This document shows, piece by piece, positions 9,484 to 64,000 of a DNA stretch of 64,000 bases; positions within the stretch are counted from its first letter, which is position 1; each line of letters starts with the position of its first letter. The notes under the pieces are model-generated. The model saw nothing but the letters and a program-made list of their open reading frames with translations. It did not search any database and was not told the DNA's origin. This DNA is from Actinomycetota bacterium (GTDB lineage: Bacteria; Actinomycetota; Thermoleophilia; Gaiellales; F1-60-MAGs149): assembly GCA_016870485.1 (NCBI GenBank), contig VGBM01000008.1, positions 23,999 to 87,998 of the forward strand. Reading direction: 5' to 3'. Position numbers and translations under genes: made by a program.

Positions 9484-10088
9484 CAGGCGGGCTCCCAGGC
9501 GAGGAAACGCGAGAGGAGCTGCCGGCCGGCCTCGGCCGAGCGCTCCGGGTGGAACTGCGCCCCGGCCACGGAGCCGCGCACGACCATCGAGGCGATGGTC
9601 GCGTCGTCGATGCTCGTGATCGCGAGGGCGGACGGGATGTTGGCGGTGACCGCGTAGGAGTGCGCGAAGTACGCCACGGCGGGCAGGTCCCGGGTCAGCG
9701 GGTGGTCCTGCAGGGGCTCGACATCGTTCCAGCCGAGGTGGGGCAGGCGTGCGGCGCCGCGGATCCGGTGCACGCTGCCGTGCAGGAGCCCGAGGCCCGC
9801 GCAGTCGTCCTCCTCGGAGCGGTCGAAGAGGACCTGCAGCCCGACGCAGACGCCGAGCAGCGGCACGTGGCGTCGCGCGGCGTCGCGGAGGGCGTCGGCG
9901 AGCCCACGGGACTCGAGCGCGGCCATGGCGGCCCCGGCCGCGCCCTGGCCGGCCACCATCAGGCGCTCGGCGCCCGCCACGGCGTCCGGATCGGCCGAGA
10001 CCGCCACCCGCGCGCCGCAGCGCTCGAGCGCGGCGGTCAGCGAGCGCACGTTGCCGCCCCCGTAGTCGACGATCAGGACCGAGGCCAC
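9483..10088 (-). CDS. hisH: Imidazole glycerol phosphate synthase, glutamine amidotransferase subunit
   Basis: VLIVDYGGGNVRSL...LLGVCVGLQVLF...GAQFHPERS (Cys-His-Glu triad context). Confidence 0.95.
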   Translation of the reverse strand: MASVLIVDYGGGNVRSLTAALERCGARVAVSADPDAVAGAERLMVAGQGAAGAAMAALESRGLADALRDAARRHVPLLGVCVGLQVLFDRSEEDDCAGLGLLHGSVHRIRGAARLPHLGWNDVEPLQDHPLTRDLPAVAYFAHSYAVTANIPSALAITSIDDATIASMVVRGSVAGAQFHPERSAEAGRQLLSRFLAWEPA

Positions 10089-11794
10089 TACAGGGAGCCC
10101 TTGGTCGAGGCGATCGCGCCGGCCCGGCGCGGATCGATCGACCAGGCCGCGCGCAGCGCGCGGGCGAGCGCCTTGAAGGCCGCCTCGGCGACGTGGTGGT
10201 CGTCCTCGCCGGACGCCTCCACGTGGATGGTGGCGCGGGCATTGACCGCGATGCAGTCGATCAGGTGCGCGACGAGGCTGGTCGGCAGCTCGCCGATCCG
10301 GTCGGCGGTGAAGGCGATCCGCACGGTGCTGGAGCCACGGCCCGAGAAGTCGACGACGGCCCGGCCGAGCGCCTCGTCGAGCGGTGCGGAGGCGTCGCCG
10401 AAGCGTTGGATGCCGACGCGGTCGCCGAGCGCCGCGTCGATGGCCTGGCCGAGCACGATGCCGCAGTCCTCGACCGTGTGGTGCGGGTCGATGTGCGTGT
10501 CACCCGTGCAGGCGAGGTCGAGGTCCATCAGGGAGTGGTGCCCGAGCGCGGTCAGCATGTGGTCGAGGAAGCCGATGCCCGTGGCCACGAGCGCCTGCCC
10601 GCCGCCGTCGAGGGTGGCCTGCAGCCGGATCGCCGTCTCCTTCGTGGTGCGCTCGATCAGCGCGCCGCGGCCGAACGTCGCCGCGCCGACGGCCGGATCG
10701 TGCGGCGCGGGGGCGGGGCGGCCCAGCAGCTCGGCGAGGCCGGCCAGCAGCCGGTCGTTGTCGGCCGGGACCGACACGCAGGCGCGGATGCAGTCGGCGA
10801 GCAGGGGCTCGTGCCCGAACGTGCGCACCACGAGCCCGCGCGCCGCGAGCTGCGCGAAGGCGTCATCGCCCTGCCAGGGCGTGCGGGCGAGCACGAAGTT
10901 GGCGGCTTCGCCCACGACCTCGAGGCCGAGCTCGCGCACGCCGGCGGCGAGCCGCTCGCGCTCCGCCCGGTAGGCCGCCGTGTCGCGCCGCATGACGTCG
11001 ACGTGGCGCAGGGCCAGCTCGGCGCCGAGCGCGGAGCCGGTGGAGAGGGAGCCGGGCGGGCGCAGCGCGTCGATCGAGCCCGCGATCCCGGGATTGGCGA
11101 TCGCGTAGCCGGCGCGCAGGGCGCCGAGGCCCCAGCCCTTCGAGAAGGTGCGGACGATTACGAGGTTGGGGCAGTCGTCGAGGAGTCCGCTGTGGTCCTG
11201 CGCACCCCCGAACTCGAGGTAGGCCTGGTCGACGGCCACGACGCCGGGGCAGCGCGCGGCGATGGCCCGGATCCGCTCGGCGGGGACCTCCTCCCCCGTC
11301 GGGTTGTTCGGCGAGCAGAGCCAGACGAGGCGCGCCCCCTCGGCGCGGCGCTCGACCTCGTCGAGGTCGAGGCGCAGCCCGCCGCCGGGCAGCGGGTCGA
11401 CGAGGTCGACCTCGGCGCCGGCCATGCGGGCGCCCGTGGCGTGCAGCTGGTAGGTGGGGCGCGGAACGACGGCGCGATCGCCGCGCCCGAGCGCGATCCA
11501 GGCGGTCAGGAGGATGGCCTCGTCGCCGCCCGCGGTCGGCACGACGTGGTCGGGCGTCAGCCCGACGTAAGCCGCGATCGCGCGCTTGAGGTCGGCGTAG
11601 TCGGCCTCGGGGTAGGAGGAGACCGACTGCGCGGCGATCGTGCGCGCGATGCCGGGCCACCACGAGGGGTTCAGGGGCAGCGTGTTGAGGTCGAAGCGGG
11701 CGACGTCGCCCGCGGGCACGCCCTCCTGCCAGCGGTACGGCGACGGCTTCGCCAGCTCCGGGCGGATCCAGGGGATGTCGAGGGGCTCGCTCAC
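10088..11794 (-). CDS. hisC-hisB: Fusion protein: histidinol-phosphate aminotransferase (N) + imidazoleglycerol-phosphate dehydratase (C)
   Basis: One uninterrupted 568-aa frame. Residues 1 to ~365 are HisC-like (SYPEADYADLKRAIAAY, CSPNNPTGEEV, VRTFSKGWGLGALRAGY). Residues ~375-568 are IGPD (ERTTKETAIRLQATLDGGG, GIGFLDHMLTALGHHS, DPHHTVEDCGIVLGQA, HHVAEAAFKALARAL). I saw no in-frame start or stop in the PAPAPHDPAVGAATFGRG linker. Confidence 0.9.
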   Translation of the reverse strand: MSEPLDIPWIRPELAKPSPYRWQEGVPAGDVARFDLNTLPLNPSWWPGIARTIAAQSVSSYPEADYADLKRAIAAYVGLTPDHVVPTAGGDEAILLTAWIALGRGDRAVVPRPTYQLHATGARMAGAEVDLVDPLPGGGLRLDLDEVERRAEGARLVWLCSPNNPTGEEVPAERIRAIAARCPGVVAVDQAYLEFGGAQDHSGLLDDCPNLVIVRTFSKGWGLGALRAGYAIANPGIAGSIDALRPPGSLSTGSALGAELALRHVDVMRRDTAAYRAERERLAAGVRELGLEVVGEAANFVLARTPWQGDDAFAQLAARGLVVRTFGHEPLLADCIRACVSVPADNDRLLAGLAELLGRPAPAPHDPAVGAATFGRGALIERTTKETAIRLQATLDGGGQALVATGIGFLDHMLTALGHHSLMDLDLACTGDTHIDPHHTVEDCGIVLGQAIDAALGDRVGIQRFGDASAPLDEALGRAVVDFSGRGSSTVRIAFTADRIGELPTSLVAHLIDCIAVNARATIHVEASGEDDHHVAEAAFKALARALRAAWSIDPRRAGAIASTKGSL

Positions 11795-14044: not shown

Positions 14045-15115
14045 ATGACTTTCCAGCGTACCACCCGCACCGTCGCCCTCGTCCTGGTCGTCCTCGTCGC
14101 GTTCTCGGGGGTCGCCGACGCCAAGCGCAAGAAAAAGCGCAAGCCCGCCCGCGCCGTCGCCACGCTCCCCGCCGAGGGGCGCAACCTCCACCAGAGCGCG
14201 ATCTCGGTCGTGCTCGCCGCCGGCGTGATGCCGGGCGCGACCGCCGAGACGATGCGCCCGGATGAGCCGCTCGACGGGCCGGCGCTGCAGGCGTTCGTGC
14301 AGGCCGCCTTCCCCAAGACCGGCAAGCGCGTGCGCCAGATCGCGGCGGGGCAGACCGTGACCATGGGCGACGTCAACGCGATCTTCGTCGAGGCCGCCGG
14401 GATGGGCCCGACCGCGGTGCGCGCGGAGGAGCTGATCGCGAACGCCGGCTACGTGGTGCGCCCGGGCCTCGGCACCGAGATCGTCGCCCGCCTGATGCGG
14501 CTGCGGACGAACCTCGATCAGGCCGAGGACGCCAAGGAGCACGCCTGGTACGAGCAGGCCTCCCGCGGCGACGCGATCTGGTCGACGGCGGTCGTCCTGA
14601 AGTGGGGTGGCTGGGAGAAGCAGTCCGCGATCGACACGGTCGAGCTGCTCGCGCAGGTCCCGCAGACGGCAGGCCCTCAGCACGACGCGATCCAGCGGGC
14701 CTTCGACTTCATCGGGATGCCCTACATCTGGGGCGGCACCTCCGAGCAGCCGCAGATCCTGTTCGGGGCGAACACCGCGGGCGGGTTCGACTGCTCCGGC
14801 TTCACATGGCGCATCCTTGCGCTCGACCCGACGGCGCCGAAGCAGGCCGCGAAGAACTTCGGCGGCCGCACCACGTTCGAGATGGCCCGCACGGCCAAGC
14901 CCGAGCAGCGACTGCCGCGCGAGGCGATCCAGCCCGCCGACATCCTCCTGTTCGGCCCGGGCGGCCTGACCGGGGCCTCCGACGGCATCAACCACACCGG
15001 GATGGCGATCTCGCCGCAGCTGTTCATCCACTCCTCGGGGCAGGGCGTCGCCCTGGCCCGCTGGGACACGGGCTACTACCTCGACCGGCTCGCCTTCGGC
15101 AAGCGGATCCTCTAG
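14045..15115 (+). CDS. Secreted NlpC/P60 family peptidoglycan hydrolase
   Basis: Signal peptide MTFQRTTRTVALVLVVLVAFSGVADA. C-terminal NlpC/P60 domain PYIWGGTSE...GFDCSGFTWRI...INHTGMAISPQLFIHS (Cys and His catalytic residues). Confidence 0.9.
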   Translation: MTFQRTTRTVALVLVVLVAFSGVADAKRKKKRKPARAVATLPAEGRNLHQSAISVVLAAGVMPGATAETMRPDEPLDGPALQAFVQAAFPKTGKRVRQIAAGQTVTMGDVNAIFVEAAGMGPTAVRAEELIANAGYVVRPGLGTEIVARLMRLRTNLDQAEDAKEHAWYEQASRGDAIWSTAVVLKWGGWEKQSAIDTVELLAQVPQTAGPQHDAIQRAFDFIGMPYIWGGTSEQPQILFGANTAGGFDCSGFTWRILALDPTAPKQAAKNFGGRTTFEMARTAKPEQRLPREAIQPADILLFGPGGLTGASDGINHTGMAISPQLFIHSSGQGVALARWDTGYYLDRLAFGKRIL

Positions 15116-19642: not shown

Positions 19643-19793
19643 AGCGATGATTGTACGCCCCCCCCCGGCGGGCGGGGGGCGCGCCGCCGCCCGGATGCCG
19701 TCCGACCCACTCGCTAACGTTGCGTTCCCCGTCGAATGAGCGGGACCTAGGTTACGAGCCGCCACCGATGGGGTGGACGAAGAGGAGAGCAGG

Positions 19794-23333
<3,540 letters not shown>

Positions 23334-24464: not shown

Positions 24465-25616
24465 ATGAGCACCCCGGCGCCCATCGAGATGCCCGCCGAC
24501 ATCGCGCAGGCGGTGCGCCGGCAGAAGGGCGCCCTGCGCACGCTGCGGGCCGAGGGGCTGATCCTCCCGCTGCTGCTGCTCGTGCTCGTGCTCGGCTCGA
24601 CCGGACTGGAGGCCGGCGTCGGCACCGGCATCGCGCTCGTGCTCGCCTTCCTGCCCCTGCCGCTCATCGCGGCGATCATGTTCCGGCTCGACCGCTTCGA
24701 GCCCGAGCCCACCCGCATCCTCGTGCGCACGTTCCTATGGGGCGCGGGTGCCGCCACCTTCGTCGGCATCGTCATCAACACGACGGTCGGGCTGACGGCG
24801 GGGGACTTCGCCGCCACGGTGATCTCGGCGCCCGTCGTCGAGGAGAGCGCGAAGGCGCTCGCGCTTCTGTTCGTGATTCGCAGGCGGCCGGGGTTCCTCG
24901 ACGGCGTCCACGACGGCCTCGTCTACGCCGTCTGGGTCGCGCTCGGCTTCGCGATGGTGGAGAACGTCCTCTACTACGCCGAGGCCTTCATCACCGAGGG
25001 CTGGGGCGGGATCACGCTCCTGTTCGCGCTGCGCGGGGTGATGACGCCGTTCTGTCACCCGATCTTCACCGCGATGACCGGCATCGGGATCGGCGTCGCG
25101 GTAGCGCGGGGCTGGGGCCGCGGCGGGCTCGCGTTCGGGCTCCTGCTCGGCCTCGCCGTGGCGATCATCCTCCACGCCCTCTGGAACCTGTCCGCGATGA
25201 CGGGCGCCACGATCACGGTGTACCTCGTCGGCTACCTGCCGCTGGCCGCGATCGGCATCGCGCTGCTGCTCGGCGGCTCCCGCCGCGAGCGCCGCATCCT
25301 GACCCGCGGCCTCGCCCCCGAGGAGGCGGCGGGCACCCTGCCGGCCGCGGAGGTGGCGCTCCTGACCGCCCGCGGACGCGCGCGGGCTAAGCTGCGGCGC
25401 CGGGCCCGGCGCGCCGGGCGCGAGGCGCGGCGGATGCTGCACCAGTACGAGGCGGCCGCCTACGAGCTGGCGCACGCCAACGCCGTCGGCCGGCGTCCGG
25501 GTGGCCCCGAGCCCGCCGCGGCCGCGGCCGCCTACCGGGCCTGCCTGGTCGAGGCGCGGGCGTGGCTCGTGCGCGACGCGCCCGGCGTCCTGCCCGCCGT
25601 AGCCTCCGCGGGCTAG
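24465..25616 (+). CDS. prsW: PrsW family intramembrane glutamic/metallo-protease
   Basis: FRLDRFEPEP, VVEESAKALALLFV, YAVWVALGFAMVENVLYY, and HPIFTAMTGIGIG motifs. Confidence 0.85.
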   Translation: MSTPAPIEMPADIAQAVRRQKGALRTLRAEGLILPLLLLVLVLGSTGLEAGVGTGIALVLAFLPLPLIAAIMFRLDRFEPEPTRILVRTFLWGAGAATFVGIVINTTVGLTAGDFAATVISAPVVEESAKALALLFVIRRRPGFLDGVHDGLVYAVWVALGFAMVENVLYYAEAFITEGWGGITLLFALRGVMTPFCHPIFTAMTGIGIGVAVARGWGRGGLAFGLLLGLAVAIILHALWNLSAMTGATITVYLVGYLPLAAIGIALLLGGSRRERRILTRGLAPEEAAGTLPAAEVALLTARGRARAKLRRRARRAGREARRMLHQYEAAAYELAHANAVGRRPGGPEPAAAAAAYRACLVEARAWLVRDAPGVLPAVASAG

Positions 25617-29726: not shown

Positions 29727-30455
29727 TCAGAGACCCAGTGCCGAGCCATCAACGAGACGCGTGGCGGCGGCTTCGCCGATCACTTCTGCGGCCATGTCGC
29801 GCGCGATATCGAGACGCACGGGTGAATGCGCACCATGCCCATCGGAGCCGATCAGGTTGATCAGTCCCTCGGCGAGCAGGCGACGCGACTCGACGTCGGT
29901 GTTGGGCCCATCGGCGCCGGTCAGGCCGGACGCGTCGATCTGCAGCAGCGCGCCGGCGTTCTTCATGCGCTCGGCGAACCCGGGATCGGGCGGCTCGCGG
30001 CGCCAGGCGGCGCGGCGCTCGGGGTGCGCGAGGATCGGCGTCAGTCCCTCGGCGCGGATGCGCCGGATCAGGCGCTCCATCGTGGCGTCGCCGAACCAGG
30101 GGCCGGCCTGCGGGCCGTCCATCAGCACGATCTCCGTGCCCTCGAGACGGAAGCGCGCGGGATCGTCGTTGGGGCGCAGGCGGTGCGGGCGTGCCGTCAC
30201 TTCGAAGCCGAGGCGCACCTCGATGCCCGTGGGCGCCTGCGCCTGCAGGGCGGCGAAGTGGCGGCGGATGCGCGCGACGCGCTCCTGCGAGGCGTTCCAG
30301 TCGTGATACGGCGGCACGACGTGCGGCGTCGCGAAGACGAGCCGCGTGCCGCTGTCGCGCGCCTCGGTCAGCAGTTCGATCGCGTGCTCGAGCGACTGCG
30401 CACCGTCGTCCACGCCGAAGACGAGGTGGGAGTGGACATCGACGAAGCCGGGCAC
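29727..30455 (-). CDS. PHP-domain protein-tyrosine phosphatase (CpsB/YwqE-like)
   Basis: GTG at 30455 in ORF 29727..30671. FVDVHSHLVFGVDDGAQSLEHAIELL...ATPHV...ILAHPER...GSDGHG. Confidence 0.8.
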   Translation of the reverse strand: MPGFVDVHSHLVFGVDDGAQSLEHAIELLTEARDSGTRLVFATPHVVPPYHDWNASQERVARIRRHFAALQAQAPTGIEVRLGFEVTARPHRLRPNDDPARFRLEGTEIVLMDGPQAGPWFGDATMERLIRRIRAEGLTPILAHPERRAAWRREPPDPGFAERMKNAGALLQIDASGLTGADGPNTDVESRRLLAEGLINLIGSDGHGAHSPVRLDIARDMAAEVIGEAAATRLVDGSALGL

Positions 30456-59158: not shown

Positions 59159-60169
59159 ATGGAGCTGCGCGCCCGGATCCAGGAGCTCGTCCTCGCCGAG
59201 CCCTTCGAGATCGCGCGCGGCGTCTCCACGCACGAGCCGACCCTCGTCGTCGAGATCGAGCACGGCGGGATCGTCGGGTTCGGGGAGGGGGCGCCCGTCG
59301 ACTACCACGGCGAGACGACCGCGGCGATGTTCGCCGAGGCCACCGGCGACGTGCCCGCGCTGATCGGCGAGGACCCGTTCGCGCTCGAGGCGACCATGCG
59401 GCGGCTGCGCTCCGAGGGCCTGATGGGCGGGACGCGGATGGCCGTCGACGGTGCGCTGCACGACTGGATCGGCAAGCGCCTGGGCCAGCCCACGTGGCGG
59501 CTGCTCGGCCTCGAGCCCGTCAGCCCGGCGACCTCGTTCACGATCGGCATCGACACCGTCGCGGGCACCGCGGACAAGGTCCGCCGCGCCCAGGACTACC
59601 GGATCCTGAAGGTCAAGGTCGGCGGTGCCGCCGACCTCGAGCGCCTCGAGGCGGTCCGCGCCGGGTTCGCCGGTCCGATCCGGATCGACGGCAACGAGGG
59701 CTGGGACCTCGACATCGCGCGCGCCATCACTCCGGACCTCCTGCGCCTCGGCATCGAGTTCGTCGAGCAGCCGTTCCATCGCGACGACCTCGACGCCTAC
59801 CGCGCCTACCGCGAGCTCGACCGCCGCCTGCCCGTCATCCTCGACGAGTCCTGCCAGGACGCGTCCGACGTGCCCGTGGCCGCGGAGCTCGCGGACGGCG
59901 TCAACATCAAGATCGCGAAGACCGGCGGCATCCGCGGTGGCTTCTCCTTGGCGCGGGCGGCGCGCGCGCACGGCCTCGACGTGATGATCGGCTGCATGAT
60001 CGAGTCCGAGCTCGGGATCGGGCAGGCCGCGCAAATCGCGTCGCTGACCGACTACGTCGATCTCGACGGCCACCTGCTGATCGAGGACGGCCCCTTCGGC
60101 GGGCTCGGCCTCGTCGACGGCGTCGTCACCGTCAGCGATCGGCCCGGGATCGGGGTGGAGGCTCGGTGA
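59159..60169 (+). CDS. Enolase-superfamily dipeptide / N-acyl amino acid epimerase (MR/MLE family)
   Basis: ILKVKVGG, IRIDGNEGW, FVEQPF, ILDES, NIKIAKTGGI, and GCMIESELG metal and acid-base motifs. Confidence 0.88.
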   Translation: MELRARIQELVLAEPFEIARGVSTHEPTLVVEIEHGGIVGFGEGAPVDYHGETTAAMFAEATGDVPALIGEDPFALEATMRRLRSEGLMGGTRMAVDGALHDWIGKRLGQPTWRLLGLEPVSPATSFTIGIDTVAGTADKVRRAQDYRILKVKVGGAADLERLEAVRAGFAGPIRIDGNEGWDLDIARAITPDLLRLGIEFVEQPFHRDDLDAYRAYRELDRRLPVILDESCQDASDVPVAAELADGVNIKIAKTGGIRGGFSLARAARAHGLDVMIGCMIESELGIGQAAQIASLTDYVDLDGHLLIEDGPFGGLGLVDGVVTVSDRPGIGVEAR

Positions 60170-61218
60170 CGGAGCGCCTCGCGATCTTCGCGGAGGGCCT
60201 CTGGGAGCGCTCCGATGCCAAGACGGGGCACGGCGTCCTGCGCTTCGGCGACCGCGACGTGGCCTGCGTGATCGACAGCAGCCGCGCCGGCGAGCGCAGC
60301 GCCGAGGTCGTGCCGTTCGCGCGGCGCGACGTCCCGATCGTCGCCGACGTCGACGCCGCGATCGCGCTCGGGGCGACGGCGATTCTGATCGGGGTGGCCC
60401 CGTCCGGCGGCCGCCTGACGCCGGCCTGGCGCGAGGCGCTCCTGCACGGGATGTCGCAGGGGCTCGACGTGGAGGCGGGCCTGCACACGCTCCTCGCCGA
60501 CGACCCCGACCTCGCGGCCGCGGCGCAGCAGTACGGCGTGCGTCTGCGCGACCTGCGCACGTCGCCGACCGATCTCGGCGTGCCGCGCTTCGACCTCTCG
60601 CGCCCGCCGGGGCTGCGCGTCGCCCACACCGTGGGGACGGACTGCGCGATCGGCAAGATGTCCACGGGGCTTGAGCTGCACCACGGGGCGCTGGCCCGCG
60701 GCGAGCGCTCCGCGTTCGTAGCGACCGGGCAGACGGGCATCGCGATCACAAGGTGGGGGATCGCCGTCGACCACGTCATCGCCGACTACATCGCCGGGGC
60801 GGCGGAGCGGCTGGTCGACATGGGCGCCGAGCACGGCGACCTGCTCTGGGTCGAGGGCCAGGGGTCGCTCTTGCACCCCGGCTACAGCGGCGTTACCCAC
60901 GGCCTCCTGCTCGGCTGCCAGCCCGACGTGCTGATCCTGCAGCACCTCGCGGGGCAGACGGTCAACGACGACTACACGACCCGGCCGATCCCGCCCCTCG
61001 CCGACGTGATCGCGCTCTACGAGGACGCGGTGCGCGCGGTCAAGGCGGCGCCGGTGGCCGCGATCGCCCTCAACACGAAGGACCTCGACGACGCGGGGGC
61101 CCAGCGCGCCATCGCCGCCGCCGAGGACGCCACCGGGCTCGTCGCGGACGACGTGGTGCGCAACGGGCCCGTGCGCGTGCTGGACGCCGTGCTGCAGCGC
61201 CTCGCGGCCGTGACGTGA
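60166..61218 (+). CDS. DUF1611 family protein (DgcN-like putative N-acetyltransferase)
   Basis: GTG at 60166 in ORF 59494..61218, with a GTGA overlap with the epimerase. AIFAEGLWERSDAKTGHGVLRF...GTDCAIGKMST...LWVEGQGSLLHPGYSGVT. Confidence 0.75.
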   Translation: MTERLAIFAEGLWERSDAKTGHGVLRFGDRDVACVIDSSRAGERSAEVVPFARRDVPIVADVDAAIALGATAILIGVAPSGGRLTPAWREALLHGMSQGLDVEAGLHTLLADDPDLAAAAQQYGVRLRDLRTSPTDLGVPRFDLSRPPGLRVAHTVGTDCAIGKMSTGLELHHGALARGERSAFVATGQTGIAITRWGIAVDHVIADYIAGAAERLVDMGAEHGDLLWVEGQGSLLHPGYSGVTHGLLLGCQPDVLILQHLAGQTVNDDYTTRPIPPLADVIALYEDAVRAVKAAPVAAIALNTKDLDDAGAQRAIAAAEDATGLVADDVVRNGPVRVLDAVLQRLAAVT

Positions 61219-61225
61219 TCGTTAC

Positions 61226-61253
61226 TTGACCCGAACGCGTGTTCGGGTAAAGT
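61226..61253 (+). promoter_or_regulatory. Sigma-70-type promoter TTGACC-16 nt-TAAAGT for the LysM gene, near-leaderless
   Basis: TTGACC at 61226-61231 and TAAAGT at 61248-61253. The ATG is at 61263, 10 nt after the -10 element, with no Shine-Dalgarno sequence. Confidence 0.6.
61232..61245. promoter_or_regulatory. LexA operator (SOS/Cheo box) 1: CGAACGCGTGTTCG
   Basis: Perfect CGAAC-N4-GTTCG palindrome that almost fills the -35/-10 spacer. Confidence 0.7.
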
Positions 61254-61255
61254 TC

Positions 61256-61269
61256 CGAACATATGTTCG
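61256..61269. promoter_or_regulatory. LexA operator (SOS/Cheo box) 2: CGAACATATGTTCG
   Basis: Perfect CGAAC-N4-GTTCG palindrome spanning the predicted transcription start. It contains the LysM ORF ATG (61263-61265). Confidence 0.7.
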
Positions 61270-61532
61270 ACGTCCGCATCATCCGCTCGCTCGGCCTCCT
61301 GCTCGCCATCCTCGCCCTCGTGATCGCCATCGGGCTGCGCACGGCGCCCGCGAGCGACGCCACCGCGCCGCCCGTGGCCTACACGGTGCAGCCCGGGGAC
61401 ACGCTCTGGGACATCGCCGACCGCACCTACGCCGGTGACCCGCGCGACCGGCTGGGGGAGATCCGGGAGCTGAACGACCTCGAGGGGGGCACACTCCAGG
61501 CCGGTCAGACCCTGCTCCTGCCCGGCGACTGA
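61263..61532 (+). CDS. Small membrane-anchored LysM domain protein (YneA/ChiZ-like)
   Basis: 89 aa. TM helix IIRSLGLLLAILALVIAIGL, then a LysM domain YTVQPGDTLWDIADRTYAGDPRDRLGEIRELNDLEGGTLQAGQTLLLP. Confidence 0.85.
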   Translation: MFDVRIIRSLGLLLAILALVIAIGLRTAPASDATAPPVAYTVQPGDTLWDIADRTYAGDPRDRLGEIRELNDLEGGTLQAGQTLLLPGD

Positions 61533-61677
61533 GCCCGCCACGACACCGCAAGATGTTGGCGTTGTGTTGCGCCGGTGAGGCCTCGAGCCGGGGCGTGTGA
61601 GGATCGTGTTAGGAGTCCGGCAGGATTCGGCTCCGGGGCTGGAAGCGGGTCGCGGGCCGCGGGATCCTGACCGGGCC

Positions 61678-62631
61678 ATGACTGCCACCGCCTCCCCCAA
61701 GCGCCCCGCGCGCACCCTCAAGGCCGTCCCCTCGGATGGCGCATTCGACGACGCCGCCCAGGCCGACGAGGTCGAGATCGACGACTCGTTCGACGACACG
61801 CCCGAGGTCGACCTCCTGTTCACCTACGTCCGCCAGATCGGCGATGGGCGCCTGCTCACCGCCGGCGAGGAGGCCGCGCTCGCCCGCCGCAAGGACCTCG
61901 GCGACGAGGCCGCCAAGCGCGAGCTCGTCGAGCGCAACCTGCGCCTCGTGATGTCGATCGCCCGGCCCTACAGCCAGGCCTCCGGCGTGCCGCTCCTCGA
62001 CCTGATCCAGGAGGGCAACGTCGGCCTGATGCGGGCCGTGGAGAAGTTCGACCACACCAAGGGCTTCAAGCTGTCCACGTACGCGACCTGGTGGATCCGC
62101 CAGGCGATCAGCCGCGCGATCGCGGACCAGGGCCGCACGATCCGCCTGCCCGTCCACGTCGTCGACAACCTCAAGCGGCTGCGCAAGGCCGATCGGCGCC
62201 TGCGCCAGGAGCTCGGTCGCCCCGCGACCCCCGAGGAGCTGTCGGAGGCCACCGGACTCGGCCTCAAGAAGGTGACCGCGCTGCTCGATATCGTCGACGA
62301 CCCGGTGTCGCTCGACGTCGGCGTCGGCGACGGCGACTCGGACATCGCCGACCTCGTCGAGGACCCGCACGCCGTGCGCCCGGACCAGCGCATCAGCGAG
62401 GGCAGCGTGACCCGCGACCTCGCGGAAGCGCTCGACCAGCTCCACGACCAGGAGCGCCGCGTCGTCGAGCTCCGCTTCGGCCTCGACGGCGAGGGCACCC
62501 GCACCCTCGACGAGGTGTCGAGCGAGCTCGGCTGCACCCGCGAGCGGGTCCGGCAGGTCGAGGGGCGGGCGCTGAGCACGCTGGCCAAGGCCAACCCCGA
62601 GCTGCGCGAGTACCTCGCCCAGACCGCCTGA
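61678..62631 (+). CDS. RNA polymerase sigma-70 factor, group 1/2 (RpoD/SigA-like, short N-terminus)
   Basis: ATG 61678 (alternative GTG 61597). Regions 1.2-2 ([22 protein letters not shown]...[37 protein letters not shown]), 3, and 4 ([39 protein letters not shown]). Confidence 0.92.
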
Positions 62632-62640: not shown

Positions 62641-62709
62641 TGATGGGGGGCCTCACGCCCGGGACCGCCGCACCCCCGTAGAATCAGGCCCGTGACGGCT
62701 ACGGGGGGG

Positions 62710-64000
62710 ATGCGCGTCTACCGCTTCGAGGAGCCGGTCGCGGACAGCCTCGGCCCGCGCACACCCCGGAGGAAGCCCCGGCGGCGCGTGCCCTGGAGGG
62801 CCGCGCTCGGCATCCTCGCGCTGATCGGCATCGCCGTGGGCGCGGTGCTGTGGCTCGGGCGCCCCACGGACGGGCTGATCCGTGAGGGCGTGCGCATCGA
62901 CGGCGTCGACGTGGGGGGGATGACCCCCGCGGAGGCGAAGGCGGCGGTGCGGGCGCACGGCGAGGCCGTGGTCGACCGGGGCCTCGTCGTCGTCGCGGAC
63001 GGCAACCGCTTCGTGATCGACACGGCGGCCATCGACCTGCGCCCGAACGCGGGCGCCGCGGTCAAGAAGGCGCTCGGCGAGCCGGACTTCGTGGAGCGGG
63101 TGCGGATGCGCCTCGGCCTCTACGAGTCCGTCGACCTGCCGCTGACCTTCCTCTTCAAGCGCAAGCCGTACATGAAGGCGACGCTGCCGATGCGCCAGGC
63201 GGTCACGTACGCGCCGCAGTCGGCGACGGTCGCGGCGGACGGGCGCCGCTTCCCGGTCACGCCGGCGCGCGACGGCCGCGTCCCCAACATGGTCGCGCTC
63301 GGCACCGCCGTGCGCACGCTCTCGACCAGCGGTCCCGTGATCGAGGTGCCCGTCAAGCCGGTGTCCCCGGCGATCTCCACCGAGCAGGCGGAGGAGCAGG
63401 CCGCCAGGGCCCGCACCTTCGTGGCCAGGCGGCACGACGTGGACCTCAAGGGCGACGTCAACCGCGTGCCCCAGGACGTGATCCGCCGCGCCGCCGGCTT
63501 CAAGGTCGGCAAGCGCACGATAACGTTCCGGATCAGCCAGGGGCCGCTGCGGGCGTGGTTCTCGCAGCTCTACGGCTCGCGCGAGCGCGCGCCGCGCGAC
63601 GCCCGCTTCACGATCAACAAGGACGGCTTCGTGCGCATCATCGGCGGCCGCCGCGGGCGCGGGGTGGACGTCGGCGGGCTCGTCGCCGCCTGGCAGGTCG
63701 ATCCGTCCCAGACCCTGACTCCGATCACGTTCGGGCCGCGCGAGCCGGCCCTGACCACGGACGAGGCGCGCACGCTCGGCATCAAGCAGGTCGTCGGCGA
63801 GTTCTTCACGCCGTACTCGGGCGGCGCCCGCGTCACGAACATCAAGCGCGCCGCCGAGATCCTCGACCAGATGATCATCCCCGCCGGCGGCACCTTCTCG
63901 CTCAACGAGGCGCTCGGGGAGCGCACCGAGGCGCGCGGGTTCGTCGAGGCGCCGATGATCGGCGAGGGCAACGTCCTCAAGGACGCCGTCGGCGGCGGCG
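62710..64000 (+). CDS. VanW family protein (partial, 3' end beyond the window)
   Basis: The frame is open from ATG 62710 (or GTG 62692) to the window end, so it is absent from the ORF track. One TM helix ([19 protein letters not shown]). VanW domain [52 protein letters not shown]. Confidence 0.8.

Follow-up and report, generated by a model that had tools for sequence, protein, structure and literature searches.

Promoter region of the LysM gene

The window described here, a stretch of 64,000 nucleotides from contig VGBM01000008.1 of an actinobacterium known from metagenome-assembled genomes (MAGs) only, carries a small gene encoding a protein with a predicted transmembrane (TM) helix and a LysM domain, similar to the division inhibitor YneA of Bacillus subtilis. 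The promoter of this gene contains two palindromes of the LexA operator type, and the gene is a candidate effector of the SOS response. The following elements are found between the end of the upstream DUF1611 gene and the first codons of the LysM gene:

61216-61218: stop codon TGA of the DUF1611 gene
61226-61231, plus strand: -35 hexamer TTGACC (promoter scan)
61232-61245: LexA-type box 1, CGAACGCGTGTTCG, a perfect palindrome occupying the whole -35/-10 spacer
61246-61247: GG dinucleotide between box 1 and the -10 hexamer
61248-61253, plus strand: -10 hexamer TAAAGT (promoter scan and sequence)
61254-61255: TC dinucleotide between the -10 hexamer and box 2
61256-61269: LexA-type box 2, CGAACATATGTTCG, a perfect palindrome spanning the predicted transcription start and the start codon
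61263-61265, plus strand: start codon ATG of the LysM gene, inside box 2

Read from 61219 to 61275, the order is TCGTTAC TTGACC CGAACGCGTGTTCG GG TAAAGT TC CGAACATATGTTCG ACGTCC. The -35 and -10 hexamers are separated by 16 bp, and the centres of the boxes lie 24 bp apart. Both boxes are perfect copies of CGAAC-N4-GTTCG, and the 64-kb window contains no other perfect site; dinucleotide-preserving shuffles gave an expectation of 0.04 sites, and none of 100 shuffled sequences contained two or more. A scan tolerating mismatches added only sites in coding regions, with the one-mismatch sites located at 29975 and 33762. The TTGACC-16-TAAAGT promoter is the sole sigma-70-like site detected by the promoter scan within positions 61000-62000, where 0.0 sites were expected. 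Judging by their positions, box 1 in the spacer and box 2 over the predicted start site and the ATG appear to be placed so as to occlude the promoter and the start.

No GGAGG-like Shine-Dalgarno sequence was found upstream of the ATG, and a terminator scan around the LysM gene, including the gaps separating it from the DUF1611 gene and from the downstream sigma factor gene, found no terminator. An in-frame TAA (61248-61250) sits within the -10 hexamer, which rules out a start codon farther upstream and thus a longer N-terminus. A preliminary description of this DNA had reported two perfect boxes 24 bp apart, the first inside the spacer of a TTGACC/TAAAGT promoter and the second containing an ATG without Shine-Dalgarno sequence, all of which was confirmed by the sequence and the promoter scan. 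It had also given a gap of 44 bp between the DUF1611 stop codon and the LysM gene. This length is correct (61219-61262), but the string quoted for the gap corresponds to 61226-61269 and includes 7 nt of the open reading frame (ORF).

Conservation of the promoter and the gene

A protein search identified 16 homologues, 15 of which are exactly 89 amino acids (aa) long. In seven loci with about 69% protein identity the gene order MR_MLE, DUF1611, LysM and sigma-70 is retained with a DUF1611-LysM gap of 44-45 bp, and both boxes are perfect although the adjoining coding sequence has diverged. A protein-based scan of one genome per species yielded 80 loci. Together with the loci found earlier, it provided 19 distinct promoters of small LysM genes located 0-3 kb downstream of a MR_MLE/DUF1611 gene pair. 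These promoters were collected by protein similarity and not by the motif; they originate from MAGs labelled Actinomycetota, Thermoleophilia, Gaiellaceae or 'Actinomycetes', and the encoded proteins are 35-94% identical to the window protein. Box 2, in the form CGAACAnATGTTCG with the embedded start codon, is perfect in 18 of the 19 promoters, while for box 1 there are 14 perfect copies, two copies with one mismatch and three promoters without the box. This result decisively supports the preliminary description, which a lack of the boxes upstream of orthologous LysM genes would have refuted.

The core promoter is preserved along with the boxes. A TTGAC(A/C/G) hexamer lies 0-2 nt 5' of box 1 in 16/19 orthologous promoters and in 97/99 metagenomic copies; a hexamer of the TAnnnT type ends 8-9 nt 5' of the ATG in the relatives, and the -35/-10 spacing is 16-18 bp. 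The metagenomic copies were obtained with a bare DNA pattern, consisting of a box, 8-12 nt and then CGAACAnATGTTCG. It produced 120 matches, 99 of which open distinct and complete TM-LysM ORFs of 78-89 aa at the embedded ATG. About six matches precede truncated or frameshifted LysM copies, and eight precede lexA itself, in other lineages. In total, at least 118 distinct sequences of the clade have been seen. The half-sites of the boxes are fixed and the central N4 is free to vary, with 23 different N4 sequences among the metagenomic copies, which is the pattern of a site for a dimeric protein rather than of an RNA stem. Because box 2 overlaps the start of the gene, every member of the clade begins with Met-Phe. 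No further perfect boxes were found on the loci of the clade.

In a close relative (locus L008, 2587-2880), box 1 has the sequence CGAACGCATGTTCG, the ATG of which is in frame with the LysM ORF without an intervening stop codon; an alternative product longer by 8 residues (MFGYSSEH-MFD...) is therefore possible from the sequence. The equivalent frame is closed in the window by the TAA of the -10 hexamer. Three other MAG or metagenome copies (L019, L024 and L136) have LysM ORFs broken by a frameshift or a premature stop codon but intact boxes and ATG, and they probably reflect assembly indels rather than pseudogenes.

Relation of the boxes to LexA

The consensus of an actinobacterial LexA, determined in Streptomyces venezuelae by chromatin immunoprecipitation sequencing (ChIP-seq) and surface plasmon resonance, is tCGAAC-N4-GNNCGa, and both boxes of the window match it (PMC9380542). 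In 15 loci of the protein-based scan, belonging to Acidimicrobiales, Bifidobacterium, other Actinomycetota and Bacillota, all of them lineages other than that of the genome studied here, the LysM gene is divergent from lexA, the classical layout of yneA and chiZ, and nearly all of these loci have the same boxes between the two genes. In addition, a LexA protein found independently (P0028) is encoded in a marine lexA-LysM divergent pair from another lineage, and in locus L057 (around 2893) a recA match is preceded by a perfect box at a distance of about 225 bp. The presence of the same double boxes at the eight metagenomic lexA promoters and in the lexA-LysM intergenic regions indicates that the motif is the LexA operator in these phyla, as the preliminary description had proposed, in agreement with the Streptomyces data. 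The link of the boxes to LexA, drawn from comparison of sequences, is indirect but strong, and it is very likely that the LysM gene of the window is controlled by LexA.

LysM genes divergent from lexA are widespread (loci L022-L084). They occur in Acidimicrobiales, Bifidobacterium, other Actinomycetota, Alicyclobacillus and MAGs of Clostridia, with one to three LexA boxes between the two genes.

The TM-LysM protein

The gene and the domains of its product are located as follows:

61263-61532, plus strand: gene of the 89-aa TM and LysM protein, YneA-like (ORF, G+C content at third codon positions (GC3) of 0.97, Pfam, NCBIfam, AlphaFold2)
61272-61343, plus strand: N-terminal hydrophobic helix, residues 4-27, a signal anchor or TM segment (AlphaFold2)
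61374-61523, plus strand: LysM peptidoglycan-binding domain, residues 38-87 (Pfam, AlphaFold2/DSSP, Foldseek)

The GC3 value of the ORF is typical of a real gene in this genome with 73.8% G+C. The LysM domain was recognised by Pfam (PF01476) at residues 40-87 with an E-value of 1.2e-11 and a score of 44.7 bits, against a gathering cutoff of 20.9. The AlphaFold2 model, built with 17 homologues, has a predicted local distance difference test (pLDDT) score of 83.7 and comprises a long helix (residues 4-27; pLDDT about 95 for the block 11-20), a linker and a LysM fold. The secondary structure assigned by DSSP on the model (strand 38-41, helices 48-55 and 60-71, strand 83-86) follows the beta-alpha-alpha-beta order of LysM domains, and the best structural matches in a Foldseek search are solved LysM domains with 46-48% identity and a root-mean-square deviation of 2.1 Å (LysM of a Thermus NlpC/P60 protein). 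The GDTLW motif and the Asn of the second LysM helix are invariant across the homologues, and the hydrophobic nature of the N-terminal helix is kept in all of them. No catalytic domain was found in the 89-aa protein by Pfam and AlphaFold2; it consists of the TM helix and LysM only. The role of LysM suggests an N-in/C-out topology. Pfam and AlphaFold2 agree with the preliminary description of an 89-aa product with an N-terminal TM helix and LysM at its C-terminus.

Among the 18,950 NCBIfam models the top match of the protein is YneA, with residues 13-88 aligned to positions 9-86 of the 87 positions of the profile. A BLASTP comparison with a protein encoded next to lexA in Bacillota revealed 41% identity over the TM and LysM regions (E-value 3e-15). 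In public annotation, members of the family are called 'LysM' or 'nucleoid-associated protein YgaU' (JGI: P0008, P0013, P0015); the latter label, taken over from the LysM/BON protein of Escherichia coli, is misleading for TM-LysM mini-proteins.

Comparison with known SOS division inhibitors

YneA of B. subtilis (BSU17860; NF010723) is likewise a protein of about 90-105 aa with a single TM helix at the N-terminus and LysM outside the cell, expressed from a promoter with LexA boxes of the CGAAC-N4-GTTCG type. The TM helix of YneA targets TM7 of FtsW, after which the LysM domain, which binds peptidoglycan, stops synthesis of the septal wall; YneA needs both domains, and its peptidoglycan binding and toxicity depend on the D-T pair in the LysM loop (PMC13396833). 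The D-T-L-W loop is common to YneA and to the window clade, in which it is invariant. In contrast to YneA, the window protein belongs to a high-GC actinobacterium, is not encoded divergently from lexA, and scores below the equivalog cutoff of the family. It also has a cytoplasmic N-terminus of 3-8 residues (the range in the clade) and no tail after LysM, and its start codon is embedded in the operator without a Shine-Dalgarno sequence.

ChiZ of Mycobacterium tuberculosis (Rv2719c), of about 165 aa, has a cytoplasmic N-terminal region that is long, disordered and rich in Arg. It originates from the same phylum and shares with the window protein a single TM helix and a C-terminal extracytoplasmic LysM domain; ChiZ itself is damage-induced and LexA-regulated, and it is predicted to act on FtsW in the same way as YneA (PMC13396833). 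However, the chiZ gene is divergent from lexA, and the long N-terminal region of ChiZ is absent from the window protein, whose TM helix begins at residue 4, so that the likeness to ChiZ is looser than that to YneA. The preliminary description had assigned the architecture of YneA and a kinship to ChiZ; the former is supported by YneA being the best family match, and the latter holds in this looser sense. Long Arg-rich N-terminal regions like that of ChiZ are present in homologues linked to lexA in other Actinomycetota (L026, L030, L076 and others). A crude neighbour-joining tree, computed without bootstrap, places the 37 clade members in one group and the proteins linked to lexA outside it.

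Other small bitopic proteins, namely SosA of Staphylococcus aureus, DivS of Corynebacterium glutamicum, and SidA and DidA of Caulobacter, are also damage-induced and act on the late divisome components FtsW, FtsI and FtsN (PMC6851548, PMC3989709, PMC4211646). SosA and DivS are controlled by LexA, as is likely for the window protein, but both of their genes adjoin lexA. None of the four contains LysM or has detectable sequence similarity to the window protein. SulA of E. coli is an SOS checkpoint effector controlled by LexA, the role proposed for the window protein, but differs in being cytoplasmic and in binding FtsZ directly, with an unrelated fold and mechanism. All characterised SOS division inhibitors of Gram-positive bacteria are encoded next to lexA (PMC6851548). 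Such adjacency is typical of the class but mechanistically not required, and the window clade departs from it. A literature search found no paper describing this clade.

Proposed function of the LysM gene

The sigma-A-type TTGACC-16 bp-TAAAGT promoter with its two built-in operators would represent a self-contained SOS cassette. In the undamaged cell, LexA dimers bound at box 1 and box 2 would exclude RNA polymerase, and upon DNA damage the self-cleavage of LexA stimulated by RecA would free the promoter. The released mRNA would be leaderless or near-leaderless, with 0-4 nt before the AUG and no Shine-Dalgarno sequence, and its translation would give an 89-aa bitopic protein whose cytoplasmic N-terminus is very short and whose LysM domain lies outside the cytoplasm, with one TM helix between them. 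If it acts like YneA of B. subtilis, this protein would delay cell division until repair is completed. A YneA-like role is assigned on the basis of the invariant D-T-L-W loop and helix-2 Asn of LysM and the conserved hydrophobic helix, and division inhibition is, on this analogy, the most likely function. Taken as a whole, the reading that combines LexA control with division inhibition appears moderately probable.

RNA folding predicts that the native 5' end of the LysM mRNA is unstructured. In RNA reading through from the upstream genes, the two boxes would pair with each other (-22.6 kcal/mol), burying the AUG, although the z-score of this 72-nt fold is just -1.76. Together with the lack of a Shine-Dalgarno sequence, this may limit translation to transcripts from the SOS promoter, an argument to which we assign a low weight. 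In a broader scenario, which we consider unlikely, an SOS checkpoint gene would have left lexA and become a minimal fused cassette with overlapping promoter, operators and start codon, in which read-through from the MR_MLE/DUF1611 genes is translationally silent and, in one sub-clade, the transcript runs into the group-2 sigma factor gene.

Several observations weigh against the proposed function. Neither lexA nor recA was found in the window by tblastn with LexA and RecA of E. coli and B. subtilis and with 15 LexA sequences from the fetched loci, nothing better than an E-value of 0.03 being obtained. No lexA lies within 10 kb on either side of the orthologues, and none lies within the 61 kb upstream or the 2.5 kb downstream of the window gene. 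In a relative, these flanks contain the sigma gene, a VanW gene, an oxidoreductase gene, a PIN toxin pair and cytochrome oxidase genes. The preliminary description had already stated that the gene is not adjacent to lexA, and this is true both for the window and for its relatives. A search of the protein database with a LexA profile yielded 7,997 clusters, and among the 120 matches listed none could be linked to the clade. At the promoter, 9 nt separate the end of the -10 hexamer from the ATG, so that the standard -10-to-start geometry gives a leader of 2-4 nt and the mRNA may not be strictly leaderless; the term 'near-leaderless' is apt. The N-terminal helix could be a cleaved signal peptide, which would make the product a secreted LysM protein, and the charge pattern around the helix is indecisive. 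However, the putative signal-peptidase position is occupied by D, E or S in the homologues, which argues against cleavage. The preliminary description had proposed a comparison with the YneA family; the match ranks first over nearly the full length, as noted above, but with 39.8 bits it does not reach the equivalog cutoff of 60 (NF010723). Mini-proteins with LysM whose genes adjoin lexA in Alicyclobacillus, other Bacillota, Clostridia, Bifidobacterium and other Actinomycetota, scored in the same way, also have YneA as their top or near-top NCBIfam match with 22-54 bits, all below the cutoff. The equivalog model is therefore narrow, and the window protein is as YneA-like as the truly lexA-linked homologues. 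Finally, the LysM domain of ChiZ has been reported to be dispensable for function (PMC3989709), which suggests that the mechanism may differ between members of the family.

The same gene could be repressed by LexA and yet encode a damage-induced peptidoglycan-binding factor with another role in the envelope, such as modulation of autolysins, protection or remodelling of the wall, or recycling of murein peptides. LysM is a generic peptidoglycan-binding module, and the sub-threshold NCBIfam matches of the protein include DipM, MltD and ActS. Throughout the clade the gene is accompanied by the MR_MLE/DUF1611 (DgcA/DgcN-like) pair, in the window clade the sigma gene is followed by a VanW/PG_binding_4 gene, and ChiZ itself has been reported to hydrolyse the cell wall (PMC3989709). 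On the other side, the protein consists of a TM helix and LysM with no catalytic domain, YneA is its best family match over the full length, and the SOS-induced TM-LysM mini-proteins characterised so far all inhibit division (PMC6851548, PMC13396833); a different envelope role thus seems rather improbable. Still less likely is that the key SOS output in the window's sub-clade is the group-2-like sigma factor, co-transcribed with the LysM gene and acting in addition to it. Both genes lie on one strand with a spacing of 145 nt and no intrinsic terminator detected between them, and their adjacency is kept in the close relatives of the window; the rest of the clade, however, keeps the boxes with an RNase Z-like gene, pyrR and pyrB downstream, and the spacer before the sigma gene has conserved blocks and an inverted repeat of its own, suggesting an independent promoter or 5' untranslated region (UTR). 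If such co-induction occurred, read-through in the sub-clade would bring a sigma regulon into the SOS response.

Two further explanations concern the palindromes themselves. They could be bound by a regulator other than LexA with the same half-sites, in which case the gene would not be damage-responsive; the failure to find lexA in the window or within 10 kb on either side in the relatives would be compatible with this. To our knowledge, no regulator other than LexA is known for CGAAC-N4-GTTCG. Moreover, the same tandem motif occurs on lexA promoters in metagenomes and in lexA-LysM intergenic regions of two phyla and matches the experimental actinobacterial LexA site (PMC9380542), which makes another regulator very improbable. 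The repeats could alternatively act as RNA, forming a terminator or attenuator hairpin of the upstream MR_MLE/DUF1611 operon. Box 1 with its flanks folds as an 8-bp hairpin of -13.2 kcal/mol (z-score -3.9), and the pairing of the two boxes on read-through RNA was described above. However, no U-tract follows the repeats and the terminator scan was empty, the z-score of the longer fold is modest, and the repeats are in exact register with the conserved -35 and -10 hexamers and the start codon. The relatives keep the 5+5 bases of the half-sites only and not the extended stem or the loop, and on this conservation pattern the RNA reading, the least plausible of all, was rejected. None of these alternatives fits the conservation data as well as a LexA-controlled TM-LysM division inhibitor.

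The YneA/ChiZ-type mechanism is already known, and no new mechanism is revealed here; what is new is a large uncharacterised clade that is unlinked to lexA and has an unusually compact cassette of promoter, operators and start codon. It provides a candidate DNA-damage division checkpoint for a large, almost entirely uncultured group of soil and freshwater Actinomycetota (Thermoleophilia/Gaiellales-like and unclassified MAGs). It also suggests that effectors of the YneA/ChiZ type need not adjoin lexA; where their genes lie elsewhere, searches based on synteny will miss them. The arrangement TTGACA-box-TAnnnT-box(ATG) would be a naturally occurring SOS promoter of compact build, doubly repressed and near-leaderless, whose operator fixes the initial codons as Met-Phe. 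Such a stereotyped promoter could serve to flag LexA regulons in metagenomic data, or as a tightly controlled part inducible by DNA damage.

Gene neighbourhood

The LysM gene lies between the following genes:

59159-60169, plus strand: MR_MLE gene (Pfam, NCBIfam)
60166-61218, plus strand: DUF1611/DgcN-like gene (Pfam, NCBIfam)
61678-62631, plus strand: group-2-like sigma-70 factor gene (Pfam regions 1.2, 2, 3 and 4), 145 nt downstream of the LysM gene

In the whole clade, including loci L011-L027, the MR_MLE/DUF1611 pair precedes the LysM gene by 0-3 kb, and DUF1611 is also present in 40 of the metagenome and related loci searched. The MR_MLE protein is an epimerase or racemase of the enolase superfamily, and the best NCBIfam match of the DUF1611 protein is the D-glutamate N-acetyltransferase DgcN, with 230 bits (cutoff 480). 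The pair points to metabolism of D-Glu or of murein peptides and is probably a conserved context rather than a part of the SOS unit.

The adjacency of the LysM and sigma genes is limited to loci L001-L010, L136, L218 and L219, which form the window's sub-clade, and the sigma gene was therefore rejected as a conserved cargo of the promoter. In other clade members, an RNase Z-like gene and then pyrR and pyrB are found downstream of the LysM gene. Since the downstream gene is not conserved while the boxes are kept, the promoter's cargo is the LysM gene. Only in the window's sub-clade could transcription from the SOS promoter read through into the sigma gene.

The spacer between the LysM and sigma genes (61533-61677) contains the conserved blocks AATGTTGsCGTTGTGT and GTTAGGAGTCCGGCAGGATTC in the six sequences aligned (the window, L001, L005 and L008-L010). 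An inverted repeat of 8 bp, CAGGATTC...GAATCCTG, is present without variation as well; about 35 variable nt separate its arms, and the repeat ends just 5' of the sigma ATG. The spacer has no Rfam match and a fold z-score of -0.9; it may be a promoter or 5' UTR element of the sigma gene. A gene for a VanW/PG_binding_4 protein (62692-63999) directly follows the sigma gene and is conserved in L001-L007. Other envelope-related genes of the window encode an NlpC/P60 protein (14045-15115) and an intramembrane protease of the PrsW family (24465-25616).

A scan of the window with Rfam at gathering thresholds found one tRNA only, and no CIRCE element was found near hrcA. Another gene of the window (19773-23333) specifies a class II (B12-dependent) ribonucleotide reductase, 1186 aa long, with a weak sub-threshold match to TACO1/YebC_N at residues 300-372. 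Neither lexA nor nrdR was found near this gene, and no cobalamin riboswitch was detected at the Rfam gathering thresholds; the 1.4-kb gap upstream of nrdJ, considered as a possible nrdR or lexA, turned out to hold the minus-strand gene of a Na+/H+ exchanger. A similar ribonucleotide reductase is encoded two genes away from the lexA-LysM pair in the lexA-linked loci L088-L097, whereas in the window it is 38 kb from the LysM gene. Finally, an ORF of 568 aa on the minus strand (10088-11794) combines a HisC-like class I/II aminotransferase domain (residues 43-350) with a HisB imidazoleglycerol-phosphate dehydratase domain (residues 405-547), and it represents either a hisC-hisB fusion or two genes merged by the crude ORF call.

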